From assembly GCA_045612895.1 (NCBI GenBank), contig JAZKZY010000122.1:4171-68170 (forward strand): a stretch of 64,000 bases of DNA. The letters are read 5' to 3'. The position numbers and the translations under genes are program-made. This DNA is from Candidatus Scatosoma sp. Its GTDB lineage: Bacteria > Bacillota > Clostridia > Christensenellales > Borkfalkiaceae. Positions 7,315-51,080 of this stretch are shown one piece after another. The notes below the pieces were generated by a model, which saw only the letters and a program-made list of their open reading frames with translations, did no database searches and was not told the DNA's origin. Every line of letters starts with the position of its first letter. Position 1 is the first letter of the stretch.

Positions 7315-7390
<76 letters not shown>

Positions 7391-7951: not shown

Positions 7952-8068
7952 ATGCGCAAAGAATATGATGGGTTGGAATTTAGTGTAATTATATTTAATA
8001 TGGAAGATGTAATTACGGCAAGCGGTGACAACTTTATTGAAGACCCTTGGGACAATTTTGAGTACTAA
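7952..8068 (+). CDS. Candidate 38-aa small protein (MRKEYDGLEFSVIIFNMEDVITASGDNFIEDPWDNFEY)
   Basis: Not in the ORF track. ATG at 7952 is preceded by AAAGGAGAAAAAGA; the TAA stop at 8066-8068 lies 17 nt before the start of the 2042-aa gene. The peptide is acidic and Cys-free. I recognise no family. Confidence 0.35.
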   Translation: MRKEYDGLEFSVIIFNMEDVITASGDNFIEDPWDNFEY

Positions 8069-8085
8069 GTTAAGGAGGAAAGAAG

Positions 8086-11000
8086 ATGAAAGCAAGTTTT
8101 AGAAAGATTTTAGTAGCGCTTTCTACTGTGGCAATGGCGGTATGCTTGTTGTTCGGCGGTTTGTTCGCTTTTTCGCAAACGAAAGACGTAAAAGCGGCAT
8201 CTGCGCTTAAAACGGAATTTACCAATAATGGCCAAATTGTTTTGAGTCAGTATGGCAACAACACCCTTGAATATGTAGAAGGTATTGCAGGTTCGACTGG
8301 CGCGGTGCTTAAAATCAACTCGAACCTCAGCGCTGCGAATGGTACAGCGTTTGTAATGCTTAGCGTGCCTAGCGTTAAGGCGAGTGAGTTAGAAAGTATC
8401 GTTGTGCGTATTTATTCGCCTGGGTATACCTCGGCGGATAGTTTTAGAGCAGCGATTGCCTCAAATGGCAGCTGGATTCAAAATGAAGCAAAAGATATGT
8501 CCAACTGGATTGACGTAAACCTTTCGGAAAACGCGATTGCGTTGATGAAGGATGCGGATGGTTTCCTTTCTACGCCAATTCCCGTTGGGGCTCGTGTATA
8601 TAGCGGTGCGAGTGAATACTATATCGACAGTATTACTGTCAATGTAAAAAAGGACTATGCTGGTGAATTCACTAACAATGGTCAGGTTGTATTTACGCAA
8701 TATGGTGGCAATACCTTTGAATACGTAGAAGGGATCGAAGGCTCGACGGGGGCAGTCCTTAAAATTAAGGCGGATGGTACGGCTTTTGTTAATTTGAGTG
8801 TACCTAGCGTTAAGGCAATCTTGTTAGAAAGCATTGTTGTACGTATTTATTCTCCTGAATATACTACGTCTGACAGCTTTAGAGCAGGTCTTGCTGCTAA
8901 TGGTAGCTGGGTTCAAAATGAAGCAAAAGATATGTCCAACTGGATTGACGTAACCCTTTCGGGAAACGCGATTGCGTTGATGAAGGATGCGGATGGTTTC
9001 CTTTCTACGCCAATTCCCGTTGGGGCTCGTGTATATAGCGGTGCGAGTGAATACTATATCGACAGCATTACTGTGAATATGAAGGAAACTGTGGACGTGT
9101 CGTTCCAGGCCATTCATGGTACTTGGAATAACTATGCTTACAATGATGCTAATTGTACGTTTATTCAATTTAACGGTGGTATTTCCGGCAATGGTAACTT
9201 GGATGCAGACTTTACGGAATTGCTTGCGAAGATGACCATTAATAATGCCCCTGTGGATACTGCAAACGTATCCTTCTATTGCCCGAACTGGATCGGCGCG
9301 AGCGGCGGTATCATTATGCGTTTGGCGACCAACCCTGCGGCAGGCAGTGTTTTGATGTTGCCCGCAGGTGCAATGTTTAACATCGGTGGATCGGATACGA
9401 ATGTTTACAAAATTTCGGAAGATGTTTATTTGAAGTTTGACGGTAGTAAATGGGCATTGACCGAAAAGCCTTCGGCGAGCATGCCCATGGCTCAATTTAA
9501 CGCTCCTTGGAGCACGGCTGGTGATTTCAACAAGGTTAGCCAAGTATTATTGCAGTACAATACCGATGCCACTTGGACGCATACCGATAAAGGTGATTTG
9601 GCATCCAAGGTAACCTATAAGAACTCCAAGACGGGCGCAACTCGTGCGGCAACGGATGCGGATATTGCAGGTTGGGACGGCCAAAAGTGGATTGTGTTCT
9701 CTAATCTGGCAGGTTATGACGTGCTTGAAATCGCGGAAGGCGGGACCTTTGGCGGTGGCGTGGGTATCCCTGCGCTTACCATTTACTGTGTAAACGGTTA
9801 CTGGGTAACGACGGCGCCTCATGCAGCTACCACGCATTTTGCTTACATTGCAAGCGGTTGGAATAACAACGCTGGCAATGGCGTAAGTAACAATATTTTC
9901 TCGTTTGACGTAAAACCTCTTGGGGATGCTACGGATGCCACCAACCTTGCGGCTACTTACAATCGTACGTCCCTCATGGTAAGATACAATGGTAAAACGT
10001 TTGCGGAACTTTATGCAGATGCAAATAATGCGAATGCGAAAAAATACTCAATTTCTTATGCGCATGGCAATCAATATTTCTATTTCGCAATTCCCGAAGC
10101 AGACCTTGTAGATGGCGCGATTTTTGAAATTGAAGAAGGCACGCCCTTCATGAACAATTATTTGGGCGCTGTTAAGTATGAGTTCATTGCTTCGAAGGGC
10201 GCTTGGGAACCTTACGTAGAACTTGAATATGGTACGCCTAATTTCTCGAATGCAACGGCAGGTTTAGTTGGCGCTTGGAGTTGGAATCATCAAACGCAAA
10301 ATACCGGGGTTGTTAAAGACACTAGCTACGGTTATACGATTGTTGCAGATTGGGTGATTGCGAGCAATGCAACCAACCTTGCGGCAACGAAGAATACGAC
10401 CTCCCTTTCGATTACTTTGAATGGTGTAAGTTTCTATGACTTGTATCAAGGCGATGACGGGTATAGATTGAATGCACAGCTTGGATATTTTGCATTCTCC
10501 GTGCCTACGGCGGCGCTTGTAGCAAGCAACGGTTACGAATATCCCACCCTTGAAATTATGGAAGGTACGCCTTTCTATGATGGCAACTACTTGCCTGCAA
10601 CGACCTTGATTTACAAGAACGGCGCTTGGCAGTTAAAAACTAACACGAATTACAATCCTTCGTTTGTAAGTATTAACGCAGGATTTAACAACGACGCACA
10701 CGGGTTCTTCATTATACAGTTTAATACGGACGGTTGGGAACAGGATGCTGTGCCTACCAGCTGGTCGGGCATTACCTACAATGGTAAAGATATCACTGAG
10801 CTTGCAACTGTAAAGTTCTTCCAAGAACATTCCATTTGGTTTACTTACAGCAAAACGAGTGAAAAACTTGCTGCAGGTTACAACAGATATTCTCATCCCA
10901 CCATTAAGTTCGCAGAAGGTGCAACCGTAGTTTACAATGAGCAAACTTATACCTTCCAAGAAATGGAATTCTATCTTGTAAACGATAAGTGGACGACGGA

Positions 11001-14000
11001 AAAACCTGCTGGCTGGACGGATGAAATGCCTATTTCCGTAGAGTATACGGAGATTAAATGGAATAACATCGACTATGGCGTTGGTGAATCAATCGGCAAG
11101 ACGAACGGTAAGGTAATTTTGCTCGCTTACAGCGAATTGATTATGGACGGCGCTGGTCAATATTCCAACTATGACAATATTATTACGGCGGACAATGATG
11201 CTGGTAATAAGATCAAGATCAACGGCGTTGCTTTGAAAGATGTTGAGGGCGCATACGTATGTTTGCATGCTGGTTACATTTATATTAACGTGCCCGCATG
11301 TGAAGTGTTGACGATTGAAGACGGCGCGATACTTTACGAGTACGCATTGTCTGAAAATACCTTCTATTTCAATGGTGAATGGTCCTTAACGGAACCTACC
11401 TATACCACGGTTTCCTGTGATGGACTTGCTTGGAATAACTACGACTACAATGGTTATGGCATGGATATTGGCTTTGAAAATCAGACGGGTATCCCTTCCA
11501 ACGGCTTCTGCGGTTTGATTGCATATAACGCTAACCTTGGTCCTCTTAACTCGGGTGGTCATACGACGGCTAGCACAGACAATATGGCTACGGCGTACAT
11601 GGATATCGGTTCGAAATTCAAGGTAAACGGCGTAGCAGCAAAGGATATTCCTGGTGCATATATCGCGTATGCTGCAGGTAAAAATTACGTATACTTCTAC
11701 GTTCCGTTCAGTGGTTTGGCGGAAACGGACGTTTATACGGTAACGATTGAAGCTGGTGCGAAATTCCTTTTGACACAGCTTCCTGCTTCTACCTTCTATT
11801 TCTATGATGGTACTTTCCATGACACCTTGTCTTCTGTTGTAACGGTACAGTATGGTGATATCACTGTTACGAACCGTTTTGCAGGTGAACAAACGATTGA
11901 TGCTGCATATCTTGCCGATGTAATTAGTGACAAAGCATCTTCGGTATGTCCTTTGAACTGGACGATTGCTGGTAACACCTATTATGCAGGTGAAAGTGTA
12001 ACTGTAAATCAAACGACGACGGTTGTTATTACGGAAGTTGTTGAATTTGAAACGATGTATGGTGCGGCTGTTCGTATTACGAACGACGGCAACTACGGTA
12101 TTCGTTTTGAAACGAGAATTGGTTTAAACAGCTACTTGGCATTGCTTGAAAAATATGGCGCAAGCAACGTGAAGACGGGTACGTATATCGCGCCTAAGGC
12201 GTTGTTTGACGCTGCTGGTATGTCGATTGCGGATTACTTTGCACAAGAAAAGGGCGAAGGTGCAGATTCGAAATACGTACACGTTTCTAACTTTGACGTA
12301 GATAAGAATGCAAACGGCATTTATAACAAAGAAACGTATGAAACGGATGGCTACATTCAGTTCTACGGTTCGTTGACGAACTTGAATGATAGCAACTACT
12401 ATACGCAATTCTTTGGTGTGGGTTATATCACCCTCACCATCGGTGATAAGACGGTTACGGTTTACGGTTTAAATGATATCAGAAAGACCAACCGTACCAT
12501 TTATGACGTAGCAACGATGGCTTACAGCGATATGGAAGAGGATTATTCGACCGACGCGTTGGCAGTTTTACAACAGTATATTGATTCGGTAGCGGTACTT
12601 ACTTACAGTAACGGTAACTTGTTTGTGGATACGAACGTAACGGGTCGTGAATATACCAGCGTTTATACGGTAACGGAAAACGAAGGTGTGTATACGATTA
12701 CCTCGTCTGTAAATCCTAAGACGGTTGTTGTGAATGGTAAAAAGGTATCGGTAGCGGTAGAAGTGGGCGATGGCGTATATACCTTTACGTTGACGGCAAC
12801 CTACTTGGATGAAAACTTTGGTTCATCTATCCGTTATGGTATGGGCGAACCTAACACAAACGTATGGGGCGCTGGTACTGAAAATGCAAATGATACAATG
12901 CTTGCAAGCTTTGCGCAGGGTATGGGTGTTACCTCCTATCGTGTATGGGTAAACAATAACATGGGTAGCGCAGGTCCCGGCAACGTTGTATCGCTTGGGT
13001 CGGCACACGTTAACAGCTTGAAATCGCACGTAAAGGCGTTGGTTGACGGTGGCGTGAACGAAATCTTGTTCTCGAATGGTAAGTTTGTTATGCCCTATGA
13101 TTATCCTACGTTCTATGTAACGGATGCACAGGGGAATGAACAATGGGTTAACAGTGAAACCTTTAATGCGGGTGGCTATACGCTAATTACCCAAGATCAT
13201 AACGCAGTTCCCAACCCTGCAACCGAAGCAGAAGCATATGCAACTTGGTTGAAGGTACAATACGATTACTACGTATTGTTTGCCGCGGAAGTAAATGCGT
13301 GGAAAATGGAATACGGCTGGACGGCAAATGACGTTCAATTCTATTTCGAAGGCCTTAACGAACCCGAATTCCACAACTTGATCCACAAGCGTGGCGACTA
13401 TCGTGATGGGGATTATTTCAAGGGCGCTTACAATACGGCTGAAATGGCGAAGATTTTGACGGATGTTTCCTATTATATGACCCTCGCATTGAATGGCTGT
13501 GGCGAAGTTACGACGCCCGCATTCACGTATTTCTCGTCTGATAGCGATTCCACTTTAACCAATGGCGTATTCTGCGATACGTTGCTGGATGCTATGTATA
13601 CGGAAATCAATGATGGCGTTGCGCCTACCGCAATCGCTGGTATTACGCCTGCTGATAGCAACGATGAAAATGATTATTTCACTTGCTTGAATTGGCACCC
13701 TTACTTGCCTTGGAATAAAACGGAACATGCCGCAATGTATTATGGTGAAATCGTTGAGACGAAGACCTGGTGGGGTGCTAAGAAGAAGGAAGCGAAAATC
13801 GCAAACTACGTGGATATGTGGGCTGCGTGGAACAATGGTATGTATCAAATTGCTGTAAATGGCGGCGATACGGATAAACCGAAAGTATTCTTCTCCGAAT
13901 TTGGTCTTTGCGACTGGGGTAATATTAGCGAAACGGCAGACCAAAGATATATCCTTGGTATTAACGAAAATACGGCGGCGACCGTATTTGGAAACTTGTT

Positions 14001-14214
14001 GAGCAATGCAAAAAAACTCTTGTTTGTAGATGAATTGACCGTTATGGCATTCCGTATTTTTGACAATGCTGACCTTGGCGCAGGGGAAGGTAACTTTGGC
14101 TTCATCAATGAAGAAGGTCAATTAAAAGCAATTGCTAAAGAATATTATCAAATTATCAATGGTAATGCCGATACGTCGGATTTGCAGGCGGTAATTGATA
14201 AATATTACAAGTAA
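8086..14214 (+). CDS. Giant secreted multi-module protein (2042 aa) with a C-terminal clan GH-A-like glycoside hydrolase domain
   Basis: Strong RBS TAAGGAGGAAAGAAG. The signal peptide ends LLFGGLFAFSQTKDVKA. Two tandem CBM-like modules (EFTNNGQ ... YYIDSITVN) are followed by about 7 modules ending xEGxxF...G.W. The last ~470 aa (nt ~12810-14211) carry FEGLNEPEF, LNWHPY and FFSEFG, the acid/base and nucleophile Glu pattern of (beta/alpha)8 clan GH-A. There is no LPXTG or C-terminal TM helix. Confidence 0.85.
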   Translation: MKASFRKILVALSTVAMAVCLLFGGLFAFSQTKDVKAASALKTEFTNNGQIVLSQYGNNTLEYVEGIAGSTGAVLKINSNLSAANGTAFVMLSVPSVKASELESIVVRIYSPGYTSADSFRAAIASNGSWIQNEAKDMSNWIDVNLSENAIALMKDADGFLSTPIPVGARVYSGASEYYIDSITVNVKKDYAGEFTNNGQVVFTQYGGNTFEYVEGIEGSTGAVLKIKADGTAFVNLSVPSVKAILLESIVVRIYSPEYTTSDSFRAGLAANGSWVQNEAKDMSNWIDVTLSGNAIALMKDADGFLSTPIPVGARVYSGASEYYIDSITVNMKETVDVSFQAIHGTWNNYAYNDANCTFIQFNGGISGNGNLDADFTELLAKMTINNAPVDTANVSFYCPNWIGASGGIIMRLATNPAAGSVLMLPAGAMFNIGGSDTNVYKISEDVYLKFDGSKWALTEKPSASMPMAQFNAPWSTAGDFNKVSQVLLQYNTDATWTHTDKGDLASKVTYKNSKTGATRAATDADIAGWDGQKWIVFSNLAGYDVLEIAEGGTFGGGVGIPALTIYCVNGYWVTTAPHAATTHFAYIASGWNNNAGNGVSNNIFSFDVKPLGDATDATNLAATYNRTSLMVRYNGKTFAELYADANNANAKKYSISYAHGNQYFYFAIPEADLVDGAIFEIEEGTPFMNNYLGAVKYEFIASKGAWEPYVELEYGTPNFSNATAGLVGAWSWNHQTQNTGVVKDTSYGYTIVADWVIASNATNLAATKNTTSLSITLNGVSFYDLYQGDDGYRLNAQLGYFAFSVPTAALVASNGYEYPTLEIMEGTPFYDGNYLPATTLIYKNGAWQLKTNTNYNPSFVSINAGFNNDAHGFFIIQFNTDGWEQDAVPTSWSGITYNGKDITELATVKFFQEHSIWFTYSKTSEKLAAGYNRYSHPTIKFAEGATVVYNEQTYTFQEMEFYLVNDKWTTEKPAGWTDEMPISVEYTEIKWNNIDYGVGESIGKTNGKVILLAYSELIMDGAGQYSNYDNIITADNDAGNKIKINGVALKDVEGAYVCLHAGYIYINVPACEVLTIEDGAILYEYALSENTFYFNGEWSLTEPTYTTVSCDGLAWNNYDYNGYGMDIGFENQTGIPSNGFCGLIAYNANLGPLNSGGHTTASTDNMATAYMDIGSKFKVNGVAAKDIPGAYIAYAAGKNYVYFYVPFSGLAETDVYTVTIEAGAKFLLTQLPASTFYFYDGTFHDTLSSVVTVQYGDITVTNRFAGEQTIDAAYLADVISDKASSVCPLNWTIAGNTYYAGESVTVNQTTTVVITEVVEFETMYGAAVRITNDGNYGIRFETRIGLNSYLALLEKYGASNVKTGTYIAPKALFDAAGMSIADYFAQEKGEGADSKYVHVSNFDVDKNANGIYNKETYETDGYIQFYGSLTNLNDSNYYTQFFGVGYITLTIGDKTVTVYGLNDIRKTNRTIYDVATMAYSDMEEDYSTDALAVLQQYIDSVAVLTYSNGNLFVDTNVTGREYTSVYTVTENEGVYTITSSVNPKTVVVNGKKVSVAVEVGDGVYTFTLTATYLDENFGSSIRYGMGEPNTNVWGAGTENANDTMLASFAQGMGVTSYRVWVNNNMGSAGPGNVVSLGSAHVNSLKSHVKALVDGGVNEILFSNGKFVMPYDYPTFYVTDAQGNEQWVNSETFNAGGYTLITQDHNAVPNPATEAEAYATWLKVQYDYYVLFAAEVNAWKMEYGWTANDVQFYFEGLNEPEFHNLIHKRGDYRDGDYFKGAYNTAEMAKILTDVSYYMTLALNGCGEVTTPAFTYFSSDSDSTLTNGVFCDTLLDAMYTEINDGVAPTAIAGITPADSNDENDYFTCLNWHPYLPWNKTEHAAMYYGEIVETKTWWGAKKKEAKIANYVDMWAAWNNGMYQIAVNGGDTDKPKVFFSEFGLCDWGNISETADQRYILGINENTAATVFGNLLSNAKKLLFVDELTVMAFRIFDNADLGAGEGNFGFINEEGQLKAIAKEYYQIINGNADTSDLQAVIDKYYK
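8215..9084 (+). repeat. Tandem duplication of the CBM-like module (two units of about 435-450 nt)
   Basis: EFTNNGQ starts at 8215 and 8665. The cores 8476-8645 and 8911-9080 are almost identical at nucleotide level (offset 435 nt). Confidence 0.85.
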
Positions 14215-14222
14215 TTTATGCG

Positions 14223-14252
14223 CAGTCCGCCAGTTTTTTGGCGGACTGTTTG
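14223..14252 (+). terminator. Hairpin terminator after the 2042-aa gene
   Basis: CAGTCCGCCA / GTTTTT / TGGCGGACTG followed by TTTG. The T-tract is short, so strength is uncertain. Confidence 0.55.
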
Positions 14253-14294
14253 TCAAATATCCATAATTTTACATAAAAGATTATGGGGAAGTTG

Positions 14295-14323
14295 TTGACT
14301 TTCGTTTTTATATTTGGTAGAAT
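14295..14323 (+). promoter_or_regulatory. Sigma-A-type promoter for the AraC regulator
   Basis: TTGACT (14295-14300), 17 nt, TAGAAT (14318-14323). Confidence 0.5.
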
Positions 14324-14341
14324 GATATGGGGATATAACAT

Positions 14342-15217
14342 ATGAAGATTTTCACACCAAAAGTCATAGAAAATTCGCCGTATACGGCGCTGGTTACATA
14401 CCCTCCTTTTGAAAAACATAGAAATACTTTTTTCAAGATTATGTTTGTAGAAAGCGGGGAGGCCACGTTAACCTTCTTTTCTAAGAAAAATGAGAAAAAA
14501 CAAAAAGTATTAAATATCAAAGTAGGGGATATGATTATCGTGGCTCCGCAGGACGTTTCCCAGTATTCAAACGTTCAAACGGGTGCAAACGGCTACCGAC
14601 ATCGAGATATTTATCTTTCCGTGGAAAGGATGAAGGAATGTTGCGATTTTCTTTCGGAAGGATTATACGATGAAATCGTAAAACAACCGTTTGCCGTTGA
14701 TTATCGTATTACGATCAATCAGCAGCTCGCGCTGTCGGAAATGATTGCGCCCTTGCTGAAAACAAAAGAAACAGAGTTTTTGGACGTACTACACAAGAGT
14801 ATCATTGTGTATTGCCTGAATTTGTACCTGCAACACAAGGCGGTGCTGTCCGTATATCCGTTGTGGTTCCACGATTTATTGCGTAAATTGGAAAAGCAGG
14901 AGTATTATTTATTGCCTGTCGATCAAATTGCAAAGTCAACAAATTACAGCCACGAATACGTATCTCGAAAGTTCAAATATTACATAGGAAAATCTTTAAA
15001 AAGGTATGTAAACGAATGTCGTTTATCGTCCGCGGCGCTATTGCTCGCAACCTCGGATTTGTCTATCGAAGAAATATCCTACAAATCGGGTTTTCCCAGC
15101 TGTAGTAACTTTATCAATGCGTTCAAAAAAGAGTATAATGTTTCCCCCGGTCGATATCGAAAGGATGTCGCAGGAAAGGTGGCAAACGACACGTATTTTG
15201 AGTGGAACAATGACTAA
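14342..15217 (+). CDS. AraC/XylS-family transcriptional regulator
   Basis: Cupin-like N-terminal half. C-terminal double HTH: VDQIAKSTNYSHEYVSRKFKYYIGKSLKRYVNECRLSSAALLLATSDLSIEEISYKSGFPSCSNFINAFKKEYNVSPGRYRK. Confidence 0.9.
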   Translation: MKIFTPKVIENSPYTALVTYPPFEKHRNTFFKIMFVESGEATLTFFSKKNEKKQKVLNIKVGDMIIVAPQDVSQYSNVQTGANGYRHRDIYLSVERMKECCDFLSEGLYDEIVKQPFAVDYRITINQQLALSEMIAPLLKTKETEFLDVLHKSIIVYCLNLYLQHKAVLSVYPLWFHDLLRKLEKQEYYLLPVDQIAKSTNYSHEYVSRKFKYYIGKSLKRYVNECRLSSAALLLATSDLSIEEISYKSGFPSCSNFINAFKKEYNVSPGRYRKDVAGKVANDTYFEWNND

Positions 15218-15246
15218 AAAAGCCTCGCATTTTGCGAGGTTTTTTA
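15218..15246 (+). terminator. Rho-independent terminator after the AraC gene
   Basis: CCTCGCA / TTT / TGCGAGG followed by TTTTTTATTT. Confidence 0.75.
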
Positions 15247-15291
15247 TTTACTAAAAGTCAATTTTTCGCAATTTCCCGTCAAAATTTTTTA

Positions 15292-15320
15292 TTGTTATTT
15301 TCACTGTGAAATGATATAAT
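15292..15320 (+). promoter_or_regulatory. Candidate promoter of the long 15377-49586 gene string
   Basis: TTGTTA (15292-15297), 17 nt, TATAAT (15315-15320). Confidence 0.45.
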
Positions 15321-15376
15321 GAACGCATACTGGGGAATATTCTAAAGAATATTCAAAATAAAAGGGAGGATTCTAT

Positions 15377-18300
15377 ATGAAAACCATCCAAAAGAAACTA
15401 ATGGCAATGCTTTTAAGCGTAGCTGCAATCGCATGTGTAGGCGCAGGCGGTGTGTTCGCTTTTTCGCAAACAGCGCAGGCAACGGCAGAGGTAACGCTTG
15501 AAAACGAATTCACAAACAATGGTCAATTTTCCGTAAGCAAGTACAACGGCGCGGTTCCTTTTGAATACGTGGATGGTACGGCTGAAGGTTTGCCCGCAGG
15601 CTACACGGGTTCGGTATTAAAACTTACTACGGTGAGCGGTGTGGCTTATGCCAACTTTGACTTTAGCGCGGCGAAAATTAATGCAAGCTTGGTTGATAGT
15701 ATCGTGGTGAGAATCTATTCGCCTGGTTATACCGCTGCAGATGAATTTAGAACGAACGTTGCTACCGATGGCTCGCAGCAGGTATTATACGGGACTGGCG
15801 CTTATGATATGTCCTCGTGGTGTGACATCACCTTGAATGCGACCTCGCTTTCGACGATGACGGATGCGAATGGGAATTTAGCGTTTGTTTCGGTTGGCGC
15901 ACGTGTAAAAGGCGGTGCAACCGTATATTACATCGACAGCATTACCGTAAATATGAAAGAAACGAAAGAGGTAACCTTTACGGGGATAAATTCTTGGTGG
16001 AATAACTATGTTCATGATGAGATGGCTTGTTCGATTTTGGAATTTAGTGGCGGTATCGGTATAGGTGGCCTTGACGGAAATTACAGTGACGTTTATGAAA
16101 AAGCGACCTTGAATGGTAAACCCGTGGATAAATCGAACCTTGACTTCGTTTGCCGTAAGTGGGTTGACGGGCAGGGCGACAGTATTGTAATGCGTTGGAA
16201 AACTCTTCCTGCGGCAGGTTCGATTTTACATATTCCTGCAGGGGCAACCTTCAAAAATGGTGGCGAAGATACCAACATCTATTCTATTTCGAAAGATATT
16301 TATTTGCAATATAACGGTACGATTTGGGTTCCTTGCGAGGCGCCTGTTGTTGTAGAAACGGTACCTGTAAGCTTTAACAAACTTCATGAACAGTGGAATA
16401 ACTATCCTCACGATGGCGCAAATTGCACGTTCCTGCAATTTGATGGTGGCATTACGGGGAATGGTAACTTGGACGCGAACTTTAGTGACTTGCTTACCAA
16501 TATGACGATCAACGACGCTGCAGTTGATACAAACAACGTATCCTTCTATTGCCCCAACTGGATTGGTGCAAGCGGTGGTATCATTATGCGTTTGGGAACA
16601 AACCCTGAAGCGGGCGCGGTTTTACATATTCCCGCAGGTACGACCTTTAATATCGGAGGTACGGACACCAACGTTTACGAAGTGACGGAAGACGTTAATT
16701 TGAAATTTGACGGTACGGCTTGGGCACCTTACGTTCCTTATGGTACGCCTAACTTTGCGGACGTTATCCCTGAAATGGTTGGTCCTTGGACTTGGAATCA
16801 TAGTACGGCGGAACCTTCAATTATCAAAGATGCAAACTACGGTTATACGATTATTGGTTCTTGGCCCATGGAAGCAAGCTCTGAAAACCTTGCGGCAACG
16901 GATACCTTAACTTCGAGATCGATTACCTTGAACGGTAAATCCTTCTACGAATTGTATCAAGAAGATGACGGGTATAGATTGAATTCGATTATTTTGTACT
17001 TTGGTTTCTCCGTACCTACGTCTGCGCTTGTTGCAAGCAACGGTTACGAATATCCTACGATTGAAATCGCAGAAGGTACACCGTTCTATGCAGGCAACTA
17101 CTTGCCTAAAACGACCATCATTTACAAGGACGGCGCTTGGCAATTGAAGCCTGAAGAGAGTGTAGAGCCTGAATTGCCTGAATTAGACTACACGCCTGAT
17201 TTTATTTCCGTCGGTGATATAAACCATATGGATAACGAGGAGTTGGGCTCTTATGGTTTGTCCTTGAAATATAATACGCTTGGCTTTACGACGGCAGACA
17301 AGCAGGTAATGGCAGCGAGCAATTCGGGCTTTACCTTGAACGGTGAAGCGCTGAATGTTGCGCTTTGGGGTGATAATCAGTTGTTGTTTTGGATGAAAAA
17401 GGACAAATGCGCAGCTGGCTACAATGGTTACTCCCATGCAACCCTTGAAATCGCCGATGGCGCAAAAATTACCAACGAAGCGGGTGACGAATATACCTTC
17501 AGCGCAAATACCTTGTACCTTGTAAATAGTGCATGGACGACGGAAAAACCTGCTGATTATGAAATTGTTCTTCCCGATCCTTTGCCTTATAAGGGGACGG
17601 CGAATATTTGGAATAACTGGGTATCCAACGGCTTATCGCAAACGATTTTGGAATTTGGTACGCATGGCGTTGATTTCCTTGGCAATGCGGCTGATCCAAC
17701 CAACTATGCAAAGGGTAAATATGGCGCGCCTATCGCAACGGCATTGACGATTAACGGCAAAACGATTGCGGAATTGTACGAAAGAGATAACAACGTGACG
17801 GTAAGCTATGCACATGGTAATAACTACTTGTATATTGCCGTTCCCGAATATTTGTTGGCAACGAACGGCAACGGTTGTACGACCTTGCATATTGCTGACC
17901 GTACGACCTTCCTTAACGCATTGTTGCCCGAAGTAACCTTGTACCTTTACAAAGGGCAATGGACGACGGAAAAACCTGCTACTGTAGAAACGGAAGATAC
18001 TGAATATACAACGGTTTCCACCTTGTTGGGTGAAAATGAAAAGACCTTGAACGCAGGTGAAAAGGTAGAAGGCATTTCTACAAAGGACAGCATGGTATAC
18101 AAATTCTTGATGAAGAACGACCGCGCTGACAATGAAGTAATCTTCTCCACCCATTATGACACTGAAAATACAGGCGTTAAGGTGGTATTTACTGGTGATA
18201 GCGCAACGGCAAGCGAACGTGTTACGTTGTATGTAAACGGCGAAGAAGTGGCGAACGATACCTATCTTTGGACGGCAAACGAATGGTTCTCCGTTCGCGT

Positions 18301-19597: not shown

Positions 19598-19601
19598 TAA
19601 A

Positions 19602-21299: not shown

Positions 21300-21314
21300 C
21301 AATGAGGGAACAAC

Positions 21315-28648: not shown

Positions 28649-28663
28649 TAGTGAGTGATAAAA

Positions 28664-42099: not shown

Positions 42100-42130
42100 G
42101 GATTTTTGTGGAACTATAAGGAGCGAGTAA

Positions 42131-43390: not shown

Positions 43391-43442
43391 GAAAATTTAA
43401 GACACCATCGTAAATGGTGGAAAGAATATTAAGGAGTAGGTT

Positions 43443-46400
43443 ATGAAAACCTTCATGAAACGAATTTATTTAATCGGTTTGACGGCACTTTGTACGTTGT
43501 GCCTGTTGTTCGGTGGCGTGTTCGCTTTTTCGCAAACGGCAACTGTAAAAGCGGCTTCGGCGCTTGAAACCGAATTTACCAACAATGGCCAAATTGTTAT
43601 CGGGGAGTATAGCGCAGCAAACGCCTTTGAATATGTAGAAGGTGTTGAAGGTGCGACTGGTGCGGCTCTTAAAATTAAAGCAGGGGCGTCACAAACGGCC
43701 TTTATTATGTTAAGTGTGCCTAGCGTTAAGGCGAGTGAGTTAGAAAGCATCGTTGTACGCATTTATTCGCCTGGTTATACCTCGGCGGATAGCTTTAGAG
43801 CGGCGGTAACAGCGGATGGGCAATGGCAACAAAATGATGCGGTAAATATGGGCAGCTGGGTTGAGGTGACCCTTAATGCAAAAGCTATTGCGATGATGAC
43901 GGGGGAAGGCGATTTCCTTAGCACGCCAATTGTGGTTGGTGCGCGTGCAAAGAGTCTAGCTGAATATTACTATATCGACAGTATTACCGTGACGGAAAAG
44001 CCTATGGGTGAAATCCCTATGGCTCAATTTGCTGGCGCTTGGGGCAATATAGATATGTACAACAGCGCGGAAAGAGTGTTGTTGATGTATAACAGTGATA
44101 ATGCTTGGGTATACCCCGATGAAGGAGACTTGGCATCCAAGGTAACCTATAAGAACTCCAAGACGGGCGCAACTCGTGCGGCAACGGATGCGGATATTGC
44201 AGGTTGGGACGGCCAAAAGTGGATTGTGTTCTCTAACCTGGCAGGTTATGACGTGCTTGAAATCGCGGAAGGCGGGACCTTTGGCGGTGGCGTTGGTATC
44301 CCTGCGCTTACCCTTTACAATGTAAACGGTCGTTGGGTAACGACGCCTCCATGCGAGGTAACGACCCATTACTTTGCGATTGCGGCAGGTTGGAATAACT
44401 TGATTACCAACGGCTTAGCGCAGACGATTGTATCTTTCGATTTGAAACCTCTTGCTGCTGCGGCGGATGCAACAAACCTTGCGGCTACGACAAACTGTAC
44501 TTCGATGATGGTAAAATACAACGGCAAGACGTTCCGTGAATTATATGCAGATACGACCAATGCCAATGCGCAACAATATAGAATTTCTTATGCGCATGGC
44601 AACAACCATTTCTATTTTGCTGTTCCTGAGGCAGACCTTGTAGAAGGCGCGACGTTTGAAATTGAAGAAGGTACGCCTTTCGTAGGCCAAGGCTTGGACG
44701 AAGTGAAACTTATTTTCAAAAACGGCGCGTGGGAATATTATAAGGAAGTCAACTATAATCCCGATTTCACCTCGATTGGTCAATTGAACCATTCTTACAA
44801 TGAAACCTTGGGCGCTTATGGTTTGTCTTTGAGATATGACACGAGCGGGTTTGCAGCCGACGGCAGCCAAGTAAGTACGAAACAACAGTCTGGCTTTACC
44901 TTGAACGGCGAGAATGTAGGCGTTGCGCTTTGGGGCGGCAATCAGTTGTTGTTCTGGTTGCATAAAGAAAGGTGCGAGGCAGGCTACAATGGTTATGAGC
45001 ATGCGACCTTGGAGATTGCGGAAGGCGCGAAGATTGTCAATCAGGAAGGGAAAGAATATACATTCAAAGCTTTGACGTTGTACCTTGTAGGCGGTCAATG
45101 GACGACCGAAAAGCCTGCAGAGGCAGAAAAAGCAACCTTTAACTCGATTTGGGGTAATATAGACACGTACAATGATTCTGACAGCGTATTGTTGATATTC
45201 AACAGCACGACCGCATGGAATCATACGGACAAAGGCACTTTGGCATCCAAAGTTACGTATAGAAATTCGTCTACGGGCGACACCTATACGGCAACCGACA
45301 GTGATATCGCGGGTTGGGAAGGTCAAAAGTGGATTGTGTTCTCTAACTTGGCTGGCTATGACGTGCTTGAAATCGCGGCAGGCGGTAAGTTTGGTGGCGT
45401 AGGAATTCCTGCGCTTACCATCTACAATGTAAACGGTCGTTGGGTAACGACGCCTGCAAGCGAGGTAACGACCAATTACTTTGCGATTGCGGTAGGTTGG
45501 AATAACTCGATTACCAACGGCTTGGCGCAGACGATTGTCTCTTTCGATTTGAAACCTCTTGCTGATGCTGCGGATTCAACAAACCTTGCGGCTACGACAA
45601 ACCGTACTTCGATGATGGTAAAATACAACGGCAAGACGTTCCGTGAATTATATGCAGATACGACCAATGCCAATGCGCAACAATATAGAATTTCTTATGC
45701 GCATGGCAACAACCATTTCTATTTTACTGTTCCTGAGGCAGACCTTGTAGAAGGCGCGACGTTTGAAATTGAAGAAGGTACGCCTTTCGTAGGCCAAGGC
45801 TTGGGCGCAGTAACCCTTGTCTACAAAAATGGCGCGTGGGAATATTATAAGGAAGTCAATTATAACCCCGATTTCGTATCGATTGGTGGCGCAAATAACT
45901 TGGAGTATGGGGAACATTACGGCTTAGCTTTGAGATATGATACCAACGGTTTCACCAGCGCGGGCAACCAAATTGTGGCGGCAAGCTATATAGGTATCAC
46001 CATCAACAGCGATGCGCAAACGACTGTGCTTTGGGGCGGGGATCAGTTGTTGTTCTGGATTCCTGCAAATAAGCTTGTTGAAGGCTACAACGGCTATTCG
46101 CATCCTACCTTTAAGATTATGGAAGGCGCAACGGTTGTCAATGAAAACGGTGAAACCTTCACGCTCGGCGCAGCAACGCTTTACCTTGTAGACGGGCAAT
46201 GGACGACCGAAAAACCCGCGGATTATTCCGTGACGGTGAATATTCCTGACTTGGGTGAACCCGATTGCGTATTCAAGGACTTTAATTTCTGGAATAATGA
46301 AAACGGCGCGACATTGTTTGAATTTATCAACTTTGTAAATAAGCCTACGACGACGTCCTCGTATCTCTCCACGACGGGGCATTATATCACCTTGAACGGT

Positions 46401-49400
46401 ACGAGATTGACCGAAGTGCCTGGCGCGAACGTATATACTTGGGAAAATACAAACTGGCTTCGTATTGACATTTTGAACCCTACGGAAGGTTCGATACTTA
46501 TCATTGAAGAAGGTACGCCGTTTGCAGGAAACTACCTTCCTAAGTTGGTTTTCAAATTTGAGGATGGCATATGGCATCAAGCGTTTATTCTAAATATTGA
46601 AATCGGTGATGAAACGTTTACCATTTACTCTATAAACGACATTCCCGTAATTCTTGATGACGTTTACTTTGAAAATTTTTTGGCTGAACGTTCGATCCCT
46701 GGTAAAGTGGTAAGCTTCTCTACGAGAGGGGTTACCTATGGGGCAGGTACGACTTTCAAGGCGTTGACGAATACGGACATCGTGGCGCAGGTAGTTGGTT
46801 TTGATACCACGGAAGGCGCTTCGGTGCGTTTGAAAACGCCTACGGGTATTCGTTATGAAACCAAAATCGACAAAGCGGATTACGACCGCTTGGTAGCGCT
46901 TTACGGCGCAGAAAACGTGGAAACCGGTACGTATATCGTGCCTAGATCTATGTTGGGTACGGCTGATTTTAGAAGCTATTTTGCAAGCGATATGAATGTG
47001 GAAGGAGCTGACTACGTATGTATTGTTAATACGGGTTGGGCAAATAAGGACACCGTGGATACGGATGGATATTATTTGTATTACGGTTCGCTTGTTAATC
47101 TTCAGGATATCAACTATGCTACGGAGTTCTTCGGTATCGGTTATATTAAGATTACCGACGGTACGAACGAATACGTTGTATACGGCGGGTATGATATGGA
47201 CGAATTTACGAGAAGTATCTACTACGTATCCGGTCGTGCGTATAAGGATTATGCAAGCGGCACAGCGGAAAAGAGTGTTTTGAAGAGCTATCTTGACAGC
47301 GTTGTATATATTACTGACGACGTAGCAATCGGCAATGGCATTGATGCGAAAGGGTATACTTCTCCTTATGCAGTGAGATACAACGCGCAAACGGGTGTTT
47401 ATACCATTACGGGTAATGCGGAAATTAAGTCCGTAATTATAGGGGATAGCAAGCGAATTAGCTATAGAACAAGCACTTTACTTGTGAGCGGTGAAGAATA
47501 TTACGTAACCGATTACGAGCTTACAGCTTCGGCTGAAGCATCTACGCTCACGTTTAAGCTTTCGCCTGTGCTCAATCCTTTGGATTTGGTGGATTTTGCA
47601 TTAGAAGTGCCTTCTAATAACGGGGTGAAGATTCTTCAAATCACCGACACCGAGTTGATTGACGCTACGCAAATGAGAACGGCGTCTAGTCTTTCGGCGG
47701 CGCAGCAAGAAGAATATGCGCGTAAAAACGTATATGCGAACTGCTTTAATTACATTTCCACGTTGGTTGAACAGGAAAAGCCCGATTTGATTATTCTTAC
47801 GGGTGATATGATCAATGGCAATTTTGACGACAATGGTTCGATGTGGTTGAGATTGATTGAGTTTATGGACTCTTTGAATATCCCTTGGGCGCCCGTATTC
47901 GGCTCGTTGGAAAATGAGAGCGCAATGGGTGCGGAATGGCAACGCGAACAGCTTTCCTCGGCAAAGAATAGCATTTTTAAGGTGAATTCCTCGACGGGTA
48001 AGGGCGATCATACGATTGCAATCACTGATAAAGGTGTGGTAAGACGTGTAATCTACATGCTTGATGCGAATGGGGATGCTGGTATCAACCAAGCACAAAT
48101 CACTTGGATGAAGAATACGGCTGCGAATATCTCGTTGAACTACGGAGACGTACCTGCATTTGTATGTTACAATAAGACGGCTGACACGAGCGTTGCTTCC
48201 GATTTTGCAGCTGTGAACGTTGATGGTGTATTTATGGGCAATGCGCCTTACGACAATTCTACCACCTTGTTGGATGGCATCTATTACACCTATGGGACGA
48301 AAACTGGCGCATATGGCGAGCATGATGCAAACAAACTTGGCGGTACGTATATTGAAGTATCGGCTGACGGGTTAGAATTTACGGTATCGGCGGAATGCCT
48401 TGATAAAACAGCGATGAAAGAAAAAGTAAGTATTGATGTGGTAACAACTTATGACGGATCTTCGGTGGTAACCGATGCGTATTTGAGACCTATTTGGGAT
48501 ACGGATCGTATTTATGACGAAACGGCTCTTTTTGTAGGTGAAACGGGCTCGGTAACCTTGATGTATACGCCGACCAATCCGAAGGAAGTGGTTGTTAGAG
48601 ATATCACGCTTGGTGTTACCTATACCTATGGCATCGACTATACGATTTCGGGCAACAAGGTAACGAGGGTTGCTGGTGGTAACCTTCCTTATAGATCTTA
48701 TGAAGAATATTATCTTAAAGAGCCTGTTCTTGTAAACGGTGTTCCTCAAAACTGGCGCGTAGATACCGTGGAAGATGATTATAGATATAGCGGTACGAGA
48801 TATATGTACTACGCAGAGGCATACGAAGGCGCTTCTCGTCACGTAACCTTTACCTATAACAAGTCGGAATCCTGGACGGGTACAACGATTGAGGGTGATA
48901 ATAATGCGCAGGCGTTCATCAATCAGTTAAAGACGGAAAAAGAAGCGAATATCTTGTTCTACGGCGACTCTATCACGGTAGGCTGTAACGCTTCCGGTAC
49001 GCAGTGGGGCGGCAATAGAAATCCTTTCTTGCCCTCGTGGGATGATTTGGTGACGAATTCGCTTGCGAAAATGTACGGCGCAAATATTACGAAATACAAC
49101 TGCGCGGTAGGCGGTTGGACGACGGCGCAGGGTGCTGAAAACTTTACCTCAAAAGCGGCTGAAGTTGGTGCGGATCTTTCCAATATCGATTTGCTCGTAC
49201 TGGCGTTTGGTATGAACGATCCCGCTACGGAGGACTCGAAATACATCGCGGATATCAAGTTGATGATAAACACGTATTATGCGGAAAATCCTAACGGAAA
49301 CGTGATTTTGGTTTCGCCTATGTTGCCCAACACGCAATCGAAGATGGTTTACGGTAATCACCACCTTTGGGAAGGCGCGTTAAATAAGGTCAAAAACAGC

Positions 49401-49586
49401 CAGGAATACGCAAGTAAGAACATTTCCCTTGCGAAAGTATTTACGATGTTTAACGAGCTTGTAACGGTGTCTGGTAAGCTGTCGAGAGATCATCTTGGCA
49501 ACAACATCAACCATCCGACCGATTTTGGTGTAAGAATTTACGCGCAGGTTATTTTAAAAACTTTGTGCGGTGACGACTTTGCGTAA
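43443..49586 (+). CDS. Giant secreted multi-module protein (2047 aa) ending in a degenerate metallophosphoesterase-like domain and an SGNH hydrolase module
   Basis: RBS TAAGGAG. Signal peptide with GGVFAFSQTATVKA. One CBM-like module and about 7 shared modules with a 1107-nt tandem duplication. A region homologous to aa ~1290-1560 of the 2042-aa protein. KILQITDTE ... DLIILTGDMING ... VFGSLENE (metallophosphoesterase-like). The last ~420 aa are a paralogue of 42131..43390 (FYGDSITVG, AFGMNDP, NNINHPTDFG). No C-terminal TM. Confidence 0.85.
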   Translation: MKTFMKRIYLIGLTALCTLCLLFGGVFAFSQTATVKAASALETEFTNNGQIVIGEYSAANAFEYVEGVEGATGAALKIKAGASQTAFIMLSVPSVKASELESIVVRIYSPGYTSADSFRAAVTADGQWQQNDAVNMGSWVEVTLNAKAIAMMTGEGDFLSTPIVVGARAKSLAEYYYIDSITVTEKPMGEIPMAQFAGAWGNIDMYNSAERVLLMYNSDNAWVYPDEGDLASKVTYKNSKTGATRAATDADIAGWDGQKWIVFSNLAGYDVLEIAEGGTFGGGVGIPALTLYNVNGRWVTTPPCEVTTHYFAIAAGWNNLITNGLAQTIVSFDLKPLAAAADATNLAATTNCTSMMVKYNGKTFRELYADTTNANAQQYRISYAHGNNHFYFAVPEADLVEGATFEIEEGTPFVGQGLDEVKLIFKNGAWEYYKEVNYNPDFTSIGQLNHSYNETLGAYGLSLRYDTSGFAADGSQVSTKQQSGFTLNGENVGVALWGGNQLLFWLHKERCEAGYNGYEHATLEIAEGAKIVNQEGKEYTFKALTLYLVGGQWTTEKPAEAEKATFNSIWGNIDTYNDSDSVLLIFNSTTAWNHTDKGTLASKVTYRNSSTGDTYTATDSDIAGWEGQKWIVFSNLAGYDVLEIAAGGKFGGVGIPALTIYNVNGRWVTTPASEVTTNYFAIAVGWNNSITNGLAQTIVSFDLKPLADAADSTNLAATTNRTSMMVKYNGKTFRELYADTTNANAQQYRISYAHGNNHFYFTVPEADLVEGATFEIEEGTPFVGQGLGAVTLVYKNGAWEYYKEVNYNPDFVSIGGANNLEYGEHYGLALRYDTNGFTSAGNQIVAASYIGITINSDAQTTVLWGGDQLLFWIPANKLVEGYNGYSHPTFKIMEGATVVNENGETFTLGAATLYLVDGQWTTEKPADYSVTVNIPDLGEPDCVFKDFNFWNNENGATLFEFINFVNKPTTTSSYLSTTGHYITLNGTRLTEVPGANVYTWENTNWLRIDILNPTEGSILIIEEGTPFAGNYLPKLVFKFEDGIWHQAFILNIEIGDETFTIYSINDIPVILDDVYFENFLAERSIPGKVVSFSTRGVTYGAGTTFKALTNTDIVAQVVGFDTTEGASVRLKTPTGIRYETKIDKADYDRLVALYGAENVETGTYIVPRSMLGTADFRSYFASDMNVEGADYVCIVNTGWANKDTVDTDGYYLYYGSLVNLQDINYATEFFGIGYIKITDGTNEYVVYGGYDMDEFTRSIYYVSGRAYKDYASGTAEKSVLKSYLDSVVYITDDVAIGNGIDAKGYTSPYAVRYNAQTGVYTITGNAEIKSVIIGDSKRISYRTSTLLVSGEEYYVTDYELTASAEASTLTFKLSPVLNPLDLVDFALEVPSNNGVKILQITDTELIDATQMRTASSLSAAQQEEYARKNVYANCFNYISTLVEQEKPDLIILTGDMINGNFDDNGSMWLRLIEFMDSLNIPWAPVFGSLENESAMGAEWQREQLSSAKNSIFKVNSSTGKGDHTIAITDKGVVRRVIYMLDANGDAGINQAQITWMKNTAANISLNYGDVPAFVCYNKTADTSVASDFAAVNVDGVFMGNAPYDNSTTLLDGIYYTYGTKTGAYGEHDANKLGGTYIEVSADGLEFTVSAECLDKTAMKEKVSIDVVTTYDGSSVVTDAYLRPIWDTDRIYDETALFVGETGSVTLMYTPTNPKEVVVRDITLGVTYTYGIDYTISGNKVTRVAGGNLPYRSYEEYYLKEPVLVNGVPQNWRVDTVEDDYRYSGTRYMYYAEAYEGASRHVTFTYNKSESWTGTTIEGDNNAQAFINQLKTEKEANILFYGDSITVGCNASGTQWGGNRNPFLPSWDDLVTNSLAKMYGANITKYNCAVGGWTTAQGAENFTSKAAEVGADLSNIDLLVLAFGMNDPATEDSKYIADIKLMINTYYAENPNGNVILVSPMLPNTQSKMVYGNHHLWEGALNKVKNSQEYASKNISLAKVFTMFNELVTVSGKLSRDHLGNNINHPTDFGVRIYAQVILKTLCGDDFA
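44019..46215 (+). repeat. Tandem duplication inside the 2047-aa gene (2 x ~1107-1110 nt, three modules per unit)
   Basis: TGTAAACGGT sits at 44321 and 45428 (offset 1107). The stretches ~44345-44705 and ~45452-45812 are nearly identical, and the last ~190 nt differ at one position. Confidence 0.9.
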
Positions 49587-49630
49587 TTCTCTTGAAAGGG
49601 TAAATTATCACAAAGTAAATTAAAAAACGA

Positions 49631-49662
49631 AAGAAGGGAAAGCTTATTTTCCCTTCTTTTTT
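49631..49662 (+). terminator. Rho-independent terminator ending the long gene string
   Basis: AGAAGGGAAA / GCTTA / TTTTCCCTTCT followed by TTTTTC. Confidence 0.8.
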
Positions 49663-49688
49663 CATTGTGGTTAAAAAATAAAAAGGTA

Positions 49689-49717
49689 TTGACATAGTAT
49701 ATTTTTTTTGCTATACT
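49689..49717 (+). promoter_or_regulatory. Sigma-A-type promoter for the GH125 gene
   Basis: TTGACA (49689-49694), 17 nt, TATACT (49712-49717). Confidence 0.55.
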
Positions 49718-49772
49718 ATCCCTAACCAAATGGACACTATAAAAGATTGTTTTAGGTAGGTTTATTCAAGAT

Positions 49773-51080
49773 ATGGAAGCAATTGTTGGGGAAAGACTGC
49801 GTTTGAGTAATATTGATAATCGAATGAATGAAGAACGTTTTTCCGATTTGCGCGCTTGCGTGGAAGAATTCAAGAAAAAGCTTTCGGATGATAAGCTGAA
49901 AGAAATGTTTGATAGGACGTTTTTCAATACGCTTTACACGACGACCTTTTTTGAGGAGGACGGCTCGGTGTTTATCATTACGGGGGATATCCCTGCAATG
50001 TGGCTGCGCGATTCCTCGGCGCAAGTGATGCAGTATTTATTTTTTGCCAAAGAATGTCTTTCGGTGCAGGAGCTTATTAAGGGTTTGTTGAAAAAACAAT
50101 TCACCTACATTATGCTCGACCCGTATGCAAATGCGTTTAATCGTGAGGCAAATGGAAACGGGCATGTTTTAGATTTGGATAAGCAATCCCCTTGGGTGTG
50201 GGAAAGGAAGTTTGAATTAGACTCTTTGTGTTATCCGCTGTGGCTTCTTGTTCGCTATTATGAGAAAACAGGCGACCATGGGTGCATGGATTCGTTATTT
50301 TTGCGTGCCTTCGATAGAATTATCGAGGTGTTTAAAACGGAACAAAATCATGCGGAAAGATCGTCGTATTATCATGAAATTACAACCCATACCGCTAACT
50401 ACTGGTGCGGAAAGGGTACTCCTGTATCCAACAACGGCTTAGTATGGTCGGGATACCGTCCTAGTGATGATAAATGCACGTATGGGTATTATCTTCCTGG
50501 TAATATGTTTATTGTGTCGGTATTGAGCAAGCTTGCGCCTATTTTTGAAAAGGTATTGCACGATGATAAGCGCGCAACCATTTGTAGGGATTTTGCAATG
50601 GAAATCCAGGCAGAGCTTGAAAAACTTTCCGTTGTAGAGGTGGACGGAAAAAAGATATATGCGCTGGAAACGGATGGGCTTGGCAATTATAACTTGATGG
50701 ATGATGCCAATATTCCCAATTTACTTGCGATGCCGTATTACGAATATCCGTATATCAACAAAGAGATATATAACAATACACGTGCGCGTATGTTAAGTTT
50801 TAGCAATCCGTACTATTTTGAGGGGACGGTTTTGAAAGGAATCGGCAGCCCACACACGCCGAAAAATCGTGTTTGGCCATTGTCGTTGATTGTGCAATCG
50901 TTGACGAGTAACGACGAAAAAGAAATTTCAGAATGTATAGAAATGATTGTGAATAGCACAGGCGGAACGGGATATATCCATGAGTCGGTTGACAAAGACG
51001 ATGATACCATATATTCGCGTCCTTGGTTTGCTTGGGCCAACTCCTTATTTGCGTACATGATTTTGGATAAATTCTCTTAA
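49773..51080 (+). CDS. GH125-family (DUF1237) metal-independent exo-alpha-1,6-mannosidase-like protein, cytoplasmic
   Basis: The family signature as I recall it is ITGDIPAMWLRDSSAQV, followed by an (alpha/alpha)6-type sequence. No signal peptide. The start codon is uncertain because there is no clear RBS; ATG 49824 is an alternative. Confidence 0.75.
   Translation: MEAIVGERLRLSNIDNRMNEERFSDLRACVEEFKKKLSDDKLKEMFDRTFFNTLYTTTFFEEDGSVFIITGDIPAMWLRDSSAQVMQYLFFAKECLSVQELIKGLLKKQFTYIMLDPYANAFNREANGNGHVLDLDKQSPWVWERKFELDSLCYPLWLLVRYYEKTGDHGCMDSLFLRAFDRIIEVFKTEQNHAERSSYYHEITTHTANYWCGKGTPVSNNGLVWSGYRPSDDKCTYGYYLPGNMFIVSVLSKLAPIFEKVLHDDKRATICRDFAMEIQAELEKLSVVEVDGKKIYALETDGLGNYNLMDDANIPNLLAMPYYEYPYINKEIYNNTRARMLSFSNPYYFEGTVLKGIGSPHTPKNRVWPLSLIVQSLTSNDEKEISECIEMIVNSTGGTGYIHESVDKDDDTIYSRPWFAWANSLFAYMILDKFS

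Follow-up and report, generated by a model that had tools for sequence, protein, structure and literature searches.

Positions 7952–51080 of a 64,000-nt stretch of a Candidatus Scatosoma contig (hereafter the window, the whole of the DNA analysed) carry a block of + strand genes. We read its conserved part, from 7952 to 49586, as a Gram-positive polysaccharide utilization locus (PUL)-type surface apparatus with which an uncultured gut Clostridium (Ca. Scatosoma-like) would attack an acetylated, phosphate-bearing glycan, and we give this reading a probability of roughly 0.6. We favor it because repeat modules are fused to enzyme domains, two related hydrolases occur as a lipoprotein and a cytoplasmic protein, an importer and a regulator are present, and the gene order is deeply conserved. 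The locus contains three or more orphan protein families and a family of unclassified hydrolases, together with a candidate new sorting signal and a small open reading frame (ORF) that is conserved in related genomes. The original prediction, made from the letters and ORFs of the window, had already proposed a PUL-like logic of sensing, binding, degradation and import; the regulator, the CUT1-type importer, the secreted and cytoplasmic hydrolases and the conserved gene order bear this out, but its inclusion of a GH125 enzyme needs revision, and the mannan suggestion tied to that enzyme is weakened.

The ORF map shows 17 + strand genes, designated g1 to g17 in order, and one 38-aa small ORF in 7952–51080. 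About 70% of the coding capacity is spent on seven giant secreted proteins of 739 to 2047 aa, which sum to exactly 9,850 aa and all begin with a signal peptide (7/7), in agreement with the predicted total: g1 (8086–14214, 2042 aa), g3 (15377–19597, 1406 aa), g8 (24760–27408, 882 aa), g11 (29905–35304, 1799 aa), g13 (37076–39883, 935 aa), g14 (39880–42099, 739 aa) and g16 (43443–49586, 2047 aa). All-against-all comparison showed that g1, g3, g11, g13 and g16 are mosaics of common modules, and that g8 and g14 stand apart. One of these modules, R, is a beta repeat of ~130 aa present in ~33 copies across the five mosaic proteins: seven in g1 (9430–11829), five in g3 (15920–17974), eleven in g11 (30034–34032), three of divergent sequence in g13 (37568–38878) and seven in g16 (43965–46586). 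An N-terminal module of ~145 aa, the N-module, occurs in g1 (two copies, 8215–9087), g3 and g16, and g1 has a further region in common with g16.

In g1, R modules and a clan GH-A-like glycoside hydrolase (GH) domain belong to the same polypeptide; in g16, R modules are joined in this way to a Metallophos phosphoesterase domain and an SGNH esterase domain. Other members of the R-module family likewise carry Metallophos or GDSL domains. The covalent fusions in g1 and g16 connect the R modules with the processing of glycans or phospho-esters, not with adhesion alone. The claim that two giants end in enzyme domains was accurate, the C-terminus of g1 being GH-A-like and that of g16 an SGNH esterase; the Metallophos domain of g16 (47628–48035) had been overlooked.

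The giants could instead be mainly adhesins or an envelope coat, such as a surface layer (S-layer) or biofilm matrix, with the enzymes and importer unrelated or loosely associated. Their build as bead-on-a-string all-beta repeats would suit such a role, as would the Flg_new/Listeria-Bacteroides repeat typical of surface proteins, the Pro/Asp-rich stalk of g3, and weak Foldseek matches of a long g3 model to RTX adhesin repeats and to the S-layer proteins SbsB and EA1. Recent module duplication is also a feature of variable surface antigens: in g16, DNA at 44286–44585 recurs at 45393–45692 with 95% identity at a spacing of 1107 nt, equal to three modules, and in g11, 31195–31494 recurs at 31984–32283 with 81% identity at a spacing of 789 nt, equal to two modules. 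DNA repeats of up to 95% identity at two- or three-module spacing indicate that blocks of modules have duplicated in tandem recently and are still doing so. Nevertheless, we consider this explanation improbable, given that in g1, g16 and their orthologues the same modules are covalently joined to hydrolase, phosphoesterase and esterase domains, that their order with the importer and hydrolases is kept even at 29–50% protein identity, and that neither SLH nor a known adhesin family was found at threshold, the Foldseek template modelling score (TM-score) staying below 0.25.

The original prediction could not place the modules of the giants in known families, and neither could searches of Pfam and NCBIfam, sequence and profile searches of PDB, or Foldseek comparisons with PDB and BFVD. 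For g8, g13, g14, the N-module and the arrays of R modules, Pfam and NCBIfam yielded no credible match, with Pfam hits inspected up to E≤10 for g8, g13, g14, the N-module and the middle region of g1. By sequence, g1, g16, g8 and the Metallophos region of g16 matched nothing in PDB. When 1.84 billion representative proteins were searched exhaustively with a hidden Markov model of the R module, 118 matched at E≤1e-3, and word-indexed searches with g11 found 57 clusters, all unnamed or "hypothetical" and from uncultured Clostridia. Homologues of g14 fell into 30 clusters of the same description and origin. Profiles of the g8 and g14 families returned only noise from PDB, and profile-profile comparison with hhalign revealed no mutual relation among the g8, g14 and R-module profiles. 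Judged by these sequence comparisons, g8 and g14 are two further orphan families, unrelated to each other.

Structural models gave a similar picture. A 1200-residue model of g3 (predicted local distance difference test score, pLDDT, 80.6) is a string of all-beta domains whose Foldseek matches were generic jelly-roll or lectin, adhesin or S-layer repeats with TM-scores below 0.3, except for one galectin-sized match. The AlphaFold model of a single R module, built from 70 sequences, reached pLDDT 95 and a predicted TM-score of 0.85 and had no Foldseek neighbor in PDB or BFVD (best match E 0.09, probability 0.21, TM-score ≤0.30). Structure-neighbor searches covered these two databases, so the novelty of the R module means that it has no relative there, and a new fold is not claimed.

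A membrane-proximal region with the Flg_new repeat is common to g3, where it is described as lectin-like/Flg_new, g11 and g13. Its last ~90 residues recur, at 29–35% identity, at the C-termini of two phosphatases, g4 and g12 (21021–21296, residues 474–564 of g4; 36701–36970, residues 469–557 of g12; 39305–39586, residues 744–837 of g13; 34753–35112, residues 1617–1736 of g11), raising the possibility that scaffolds and phosphatases have a common wall-binding or protein-protein docking domain. In g3, a perfect (TPDPDP)n repeat of ~100 residues (residues ~1255–1345, ~19139–19412) is followed by an acidic Ser/Asp-rich linker and then the anchor; the repeat is likely a wall-spanning stalk.

Pfam analysis (18 proteins in all, giants included; matches reported at E≤0.01) bore out the predicted enzymes, AraC-family regulator and importer, the GH-A-like modules by motifs and marginal matches only. 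The regulator g2 (14342–15217) matched HTH_18/HTH_AraC at E 2e-20. The BPD_transp_1 permeases g5 (21315–22166) and g7 (23774–24751) and the SBP_bac_1/8 solute-binding lipoprotein g6 (22196–23710) make up a CUT1-type ATP-binding cassette (ABC) importer; the best NCBIfam matches of g6 are carbohydrate ABC binding proteins, below cut-off, and Pfam found no importer ATPase gene in the locus. Two secreted Y_phosphatase3 proteins, g4 (19602–21299) and g12 (35297–36979), matched at E ~1e-31, are 49% identical and carry the CX5R motif HCxVGRDRT (HCSVGRDRT at residue 325 of g4, HCAVGRDRT at residue 318 of g12). GDSL/SGNH esterase domains with a GDSI motif were found in the lipoprotein g15 (42131–43390) and at the C-terminus of g16 (48957–49391), and the two are 47% identical. 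The enzyme set suggests that the substrate is an O-acylated glycan with phosphate or phosphodiester groups.

The three predicted clan GH-A-like modules, namely the lipoprotein g9 (27386–28648), the cytoplasmic g10 (28655–29833), which lacks a signal peptide, and the C-terminus of g1 (12814–14184), proved to be paralogues with invariant NEP, HPY and TEfG motifs, N181-E182-P183 and E323 being invariant in seven sequences. In the (beta/alpha)8 barrel of clan GH-A, the acid/base Glu comes after an Asn at strand 4, and the nucleophile Glu sits at strand 7. As in PslG and clan GH-A, the Asn-Glu-Pro, His-Pro-Tyr and second Glu (in TEfG) follow one another in the expected order and spacing. This is the motif pattern expected of GH-A, and on that pattern the three are candidate, as yet unclassified GH-A-like hydrolases.

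Several findings weigh against a PUL-type apparatus. Neither the giants, the R module, g8 nor g14 matched any carbohydrate-binding or catalytic family in sequence and profile searches, so that glycan binding by these proteins is purely something that we infer. Database support for the g9 family is marginal: Glyco_hydro_cc matched at E 0.0067, below the Pfam cut-off, PslG was the best PDB profile match at E 0.18, and hhalign of the family against a GH42 gave no signal. The PF13350 phosphatases g4 and g12 belong to a family annotated as protein phosphatases. Finally, the sole firmly classified GH, the cytoplasmic GH125 enzyme encoded by g17 (49773–51080, Pfam E 9e-138), lies outside the conserved unit.

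The position of GH125 was evident from the transcription signals. The araC gene has its own promoter-like site (14295–14323) and a strong terminator hairpin (15223–15239), and a good promoter (15292–15320) precedes g3. No intergenic terminator was found in the 34 kb between g3 and g16, in which several gene pairs overlap or abut, the g8 stop overlapping the g9 start, for example. A strong intrinsic terminator on the + strand (49629–49660, a 14-bp stem and a T-run) closes the g3–g16 unit, and a near-consensus promoter (49689–49717) lies between it and the GH125 gene. In the two relatives examined, the position after the g16 orthologue is occupied by GH42 and a GH106-like or rhamnogalacturonase-like gene. 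The terminator and promoter, together with the lack of synteny, separate GH125 from the rest and leave 7952–49586 as the conserved functional core; to judge by these signals, g17 is an adjoining, separate transcription unit, in contrast to its predicted inclusion in the locus.

Once GH125 is split off, the mannan hypothesis loses most of its support and any guess at the substrate is weak. The proposal that the target is yeast or fungal phosphomannan or host high-mannose glycans draws on the presence, 186 nt downstream of g16, of a member of the exo-alpha-1,6-mannosidase family GH125, and the phosphatases and esterases could remove mannosyl-phosphate and acetyl decorations. We regard it as very unlikely, because the GH125 gene lies behind the 14-bp-stem terminator with its own near-consensus promoter and is replaced by other genes in the two related loci, because no GH38, GH76, GH92 or GH99 is present, and because its promoter has no motif in common with those of g1 or g3. 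The mannan-type substrates named earlier are thus undercut on all of these counts. A search for an operator common to the g1, g3 and GH125 promoters found only an AT-rich likeness upstream of g1 and g3, which was not convincing, and Rfam gave no riboswitch or leader.

Comparison with other genomes showed that the locus is not a chance feature, as homologues of its ORFs occur there in the same order. Gene order, whose conservation had been named as a check, held in at least 11 related contigs from Ca. Scatosoma and similar uncultured metagenome-assembled genomes (MAGs), GH125 excepted. The recurring order, seen on a 459-kb ENA scaffold, is AraC, small ORF, giant, permease, solute-binding protein, permease, g8, g9 (and g10 in some), giant or giants, phosphatase, g13, g14, esterase, a second small ORF in some, and a g16-like gene; it was also found on several other metagenome contigs and in eight GTDB species genomes, most of them labeled Christensenellaceae, Clostridiales or Ca. 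Scatosoma, the last being an uncultured genus of the gut whose name was introduced in work on chicken feces (PMC8035907). A distant 'Bacilli' MAG is also among these genomes and keeps the gene order in part at 29–49% identity; in related locus L014, the order with the importer and hydrolases persists at 29–50% protein identity. The AraC gene adjoins giants in five of the related loci (L002, L005, L008, L012 and L014). Flanking genes differ between genomes. In L002, a tyrosine integrase, a NikA-like protein and an AAA_25 protein (6507–9051) lie directly upstream of a g16-like/g1-like pair; this context is a hint that mobile elements may carry portions of the locus.

Another conserved element is the small ORF itself. 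The predicted start of the block at 7952 is correct as a coordinate but is the ATG of the 38-aa small ORF MRKEYDGLEFSVIIFNMEDVITASGDNFIEDPWDNFEY (7952–8068, +), not of a giant; this ORF has a strong Shine-Dalgarno (SD) sequence, and its stop lies 17 nt before the g1 start. In divergent genomes (loci L001–L006), giant genes of the g1-like or g16-like kind are preceded, at a distance of 12–17 nt, by ORFs of 38–39 aa with a strong SD, for example at 9869–9988 in L001, 9870–9986 and 16262–16378 in L002 and 9869–9988 in L005. The C-terminal half of the product is conserved as SGDN[FYW]x[ED]DPWxxFE[YD]; searches found neither a signal peptide nor a family match. It may be a leader peptide, a chaperone or a regulator.

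The same set of components could also serve the cell to remodel or recycle glycopolymers of its own wall, such as secondary cell-wall polysaccharides or teichoic-acid-like polymers, with no external foraging. The phosphodiesterase-type Metallophos domain, phosphomonoesterases, SGNH esterases and glycosidases suit O-acylated, phosphodiester-linked wall polymers, every component is retained at membrane or wall, and the locus of one relative adjoins glmS, a phosphoglucomutase-family gene, a hexapeptide-repeat gene and a polysaccharide deacetylase gene. The AraC regulator, CUT1-type importer and cytoplasmic hydrolase paralogue form a catabolic pattern, however, an extended surface scaffold of ~9,850 aa is hard to justify for housekeeping turnover, and flanking genes vary between genomes; there is, in our view, only a small chance that this explanation is correct.

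We propose that, in the PUL-type apparatus, the AraC regulator g2 would control two flanking units, one comprising the small ORF and g1 and the other the 34-kb run from g3 to g16. The anchored giants g3, g11 and g13 would hold strings of R modules away from the membrane, g3 by means of its (TPDPDP)n stalk, and alongside the orphans g8 and g14 would capture polymer at the surface. R modules would also bring enzymes to the substrate, namely the GH-A-like domain of g1 and the Metallophos and SGNH esterase domains of g16, whose activities are predicted from the domains present. The lipoproteins g9 and g15, together with g4 and g12 as secreted CX5R phosphatases, would then complete cleavage, de-esterification and dephosphorylation, after which oligosaccharides could be imported by the CUT1-type system g5–g7 and broken down in the cytoplasm by g10 and perhaps by neighboring GHs such as GH125.

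Attachment of this apparatus to the cell appears to involve an unusual C-terminal tail. Of the five giants predicted to end in a transmembrane (TM) helix and basic tail without LPXTG, g3, g8, g11 and g14 do so, and in g13 the TM helix lies near residue 845 with a cytoplasmic tail of 70 aa behind it. The absence of LPXTG was correct, but the tails are mostly tripartite, with a Gly-Cys element. No C-terminal LPXTG or NPXTG was found in the seven giants or in 105 further family members, 61 of which have a C-terminal TM anchor, and Pfam gave no SLH, dockerin or cohesin match in the 18 proteins examined, in line with the predicted lack of such signals.

In 78 of 100 retrieved proteins with a C-terminal TM helix, Gly-Cys directly precedes the helix and a Lys-rich cluster follows it. 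The consensus, GC[GFS]G, TM helix, KKKKED or KGGKENE, recurs in the giants with R modules, in g8 orthologues and in some g14-family proteins, and a tripartite tail common to three otherwise unrelated families is a hallmark of a sorting signal. In the window, g3 ends in KKGCFG, TM helix, KKRKED (19502–19594) and g11 in GCFG, TM helix, Lys cluster (35188–35301), both on the + strand; the g8 and g14 proteins of the window lack the Cys, which most g8 orthologues and several g14-family members have.

The nearest known class comprises the Cys-containing MYXO-, JDVT-, Synerg- and CGP-CTERM signals cleaved by CPBP-type myxosortases (bioRxiv 10.1101/2023.06.07.544157; PMC11980579). The tail resembles the MYXO-CTERM class in its conserved-Cys motif, hydrophobic helix and basic cluster at the extreme C-terminus and in being common here to families without other homology. 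It differs in its host (Clostridia/Bacillota), in a basic cluster that is Lys-rich (KKKKED, KGGKENE) rather than Arg-rich, in the absence of a CPBP gene from the locus, and in a Cys that is dispensable in some orthologues, including the window's g8 and g14. Curated CTERM models (TIGR03901 and the like) gave sub-threshold matches to the TM region only, LPXTG_anchor matched the TM-plus-basic part below cut-off, and no CPBP/Rce1-like protease gene was found in the window or in the fetched flanks of related loci. We therefore regard the GC-TM-Lys tail as a candidate new Cys-containing C-terminal sorting signal. Its processing is only hypothetical, because the paper on Cys-containing CTERM signals describes none from Bacillota (bioRxiv 10.1101/2023.06.07.544157; PMC11980579), no model reached threshold and the locus contains no protease. 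If the tail is a processed sorting signal, a myxosortase-type mechanism would extend to monoderm Bacillota.

Comparison of the locus with known systems revealed both resemblances and departures. The Gram-positive PULs (gpPULs) of gut Firmicutes combine a regulator, an ABC or other transporter and carbohydrate-active enzymes. The locus resembles them in its AraC regulator, its CUT1-type permease pair and lipoprotein binding protein, its secreted multimodular hydrolases and cytoplasmic finishing enzyme, and its co-directional, tightly packed genes. A transport system and a regulator are thus present; among degrading enzymes, the SGNH esterases are secure, GH125 is secure but in a separate unit, and the GH-A-like proteins of the core are recognized by motifs only. 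Differences from gpPULs include giants built from modules without CAZy, Pfam or PDB relatives, unclassified hydrolase modules, two secreted CX5R phosphatases with a Metallophos domain, and anchoring by a C-terminal TM helix or GC tail rather than LPXTG. No gene had a Pfam match to a TonB-dependent receptor or SusD, the components of Sus-like PULs of Bacteroidota.

The long tandem arrays of ~100–150-aa beta modules, which end in catalytic domains or serve as non-catalytic surface scaffolds, recall the surface amylases and glycanases of Roseburia, Eubacterium and Ruminococcus, with their arrays of carbohydrate-binding modules, and cellulosome scaffoldins. In contrast to these, the locus shows no cohesin, dockerin, SLH or sortase signal, and neither Pfam nor NCBIfam has an entry for its R-module family, which is rare (118 of 1.84e9 representatives). 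As to S-layer proteins, no SLH match was found, and the likeness to SbsB and EA1 in Foldseek is of low TM-score only.

The guts of animals and humans commonly harbor uncultured Christensenellales-like Clostridia, and the locus gathers several candidate new families in one conserved unit: two large orphan proteins, a GH-A-like hydrolase and a binding module. Glycosidases combined with secreted CX5R phosphatases, esterases and a phosphodiesterase-type domain suggest that the targets are acylated glycans bearing phosphate, which could be fungal or bacterial wall polymers; to our knowledge, few Gram-positive systems for such glycans have been described. A far-reaching composite of these ideas would make the locus the type example of a Gram-positive surface apparatus not described before. 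In it, the R module would represent a carbohydrate-binding fold family without precedent, g8 and g14 would each found a family with a binding or catalytic role, and a further GH family would begin with g9, g10 and the C-terminus of g1. The GC-TM-Lys tail would be a fifth Cys-containing C-terminal sorting signal, the first in Bacillota, and an intramembrane protease dedicated to it would cleave and possibly lipidate it; the small ORF would encode a dedicated factor in making or regulating the giants. That all of these parts are correct together is doubtful.

With regard to its surroundings, the + strand block 7952–51080 is uninterrupted and contiguous between tRNA-Thr (7315–7390), preceded by recA and rny, and mgtC (51174–51821), as originally described. 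A stretch made up of the tRNA-Thr 3' end and the terminator hairpin of that gene (7370–7411) recurs 150 bp downstream (7521–7560), with 21/21 nt identical where 0 such repeats are expected by chance; this duplication may be the scar of an integration or excision event. A search for a third copy of the tRNA-Thr 3' end bounding the 43-kb locus found none and, with a G+C content equal to that of the flanks, led us to reject an att-bounded 43-kb island.

Downstream of mgtC lies a low-G+C (34%) island (52178–59232) that adjoins tRNA-Trp (59693–59766). It contains an IS3-type transposase gene (52178–53350, − strand), an unannotated 514-aa ORF (53890–55434), and genes for an AAA_15/OLD-TOPRIM ATPase (55466–57475) and then a UvrD-type helicase (57478–59232), the latter two in the gene arrangement of Gabija-like defense systems.

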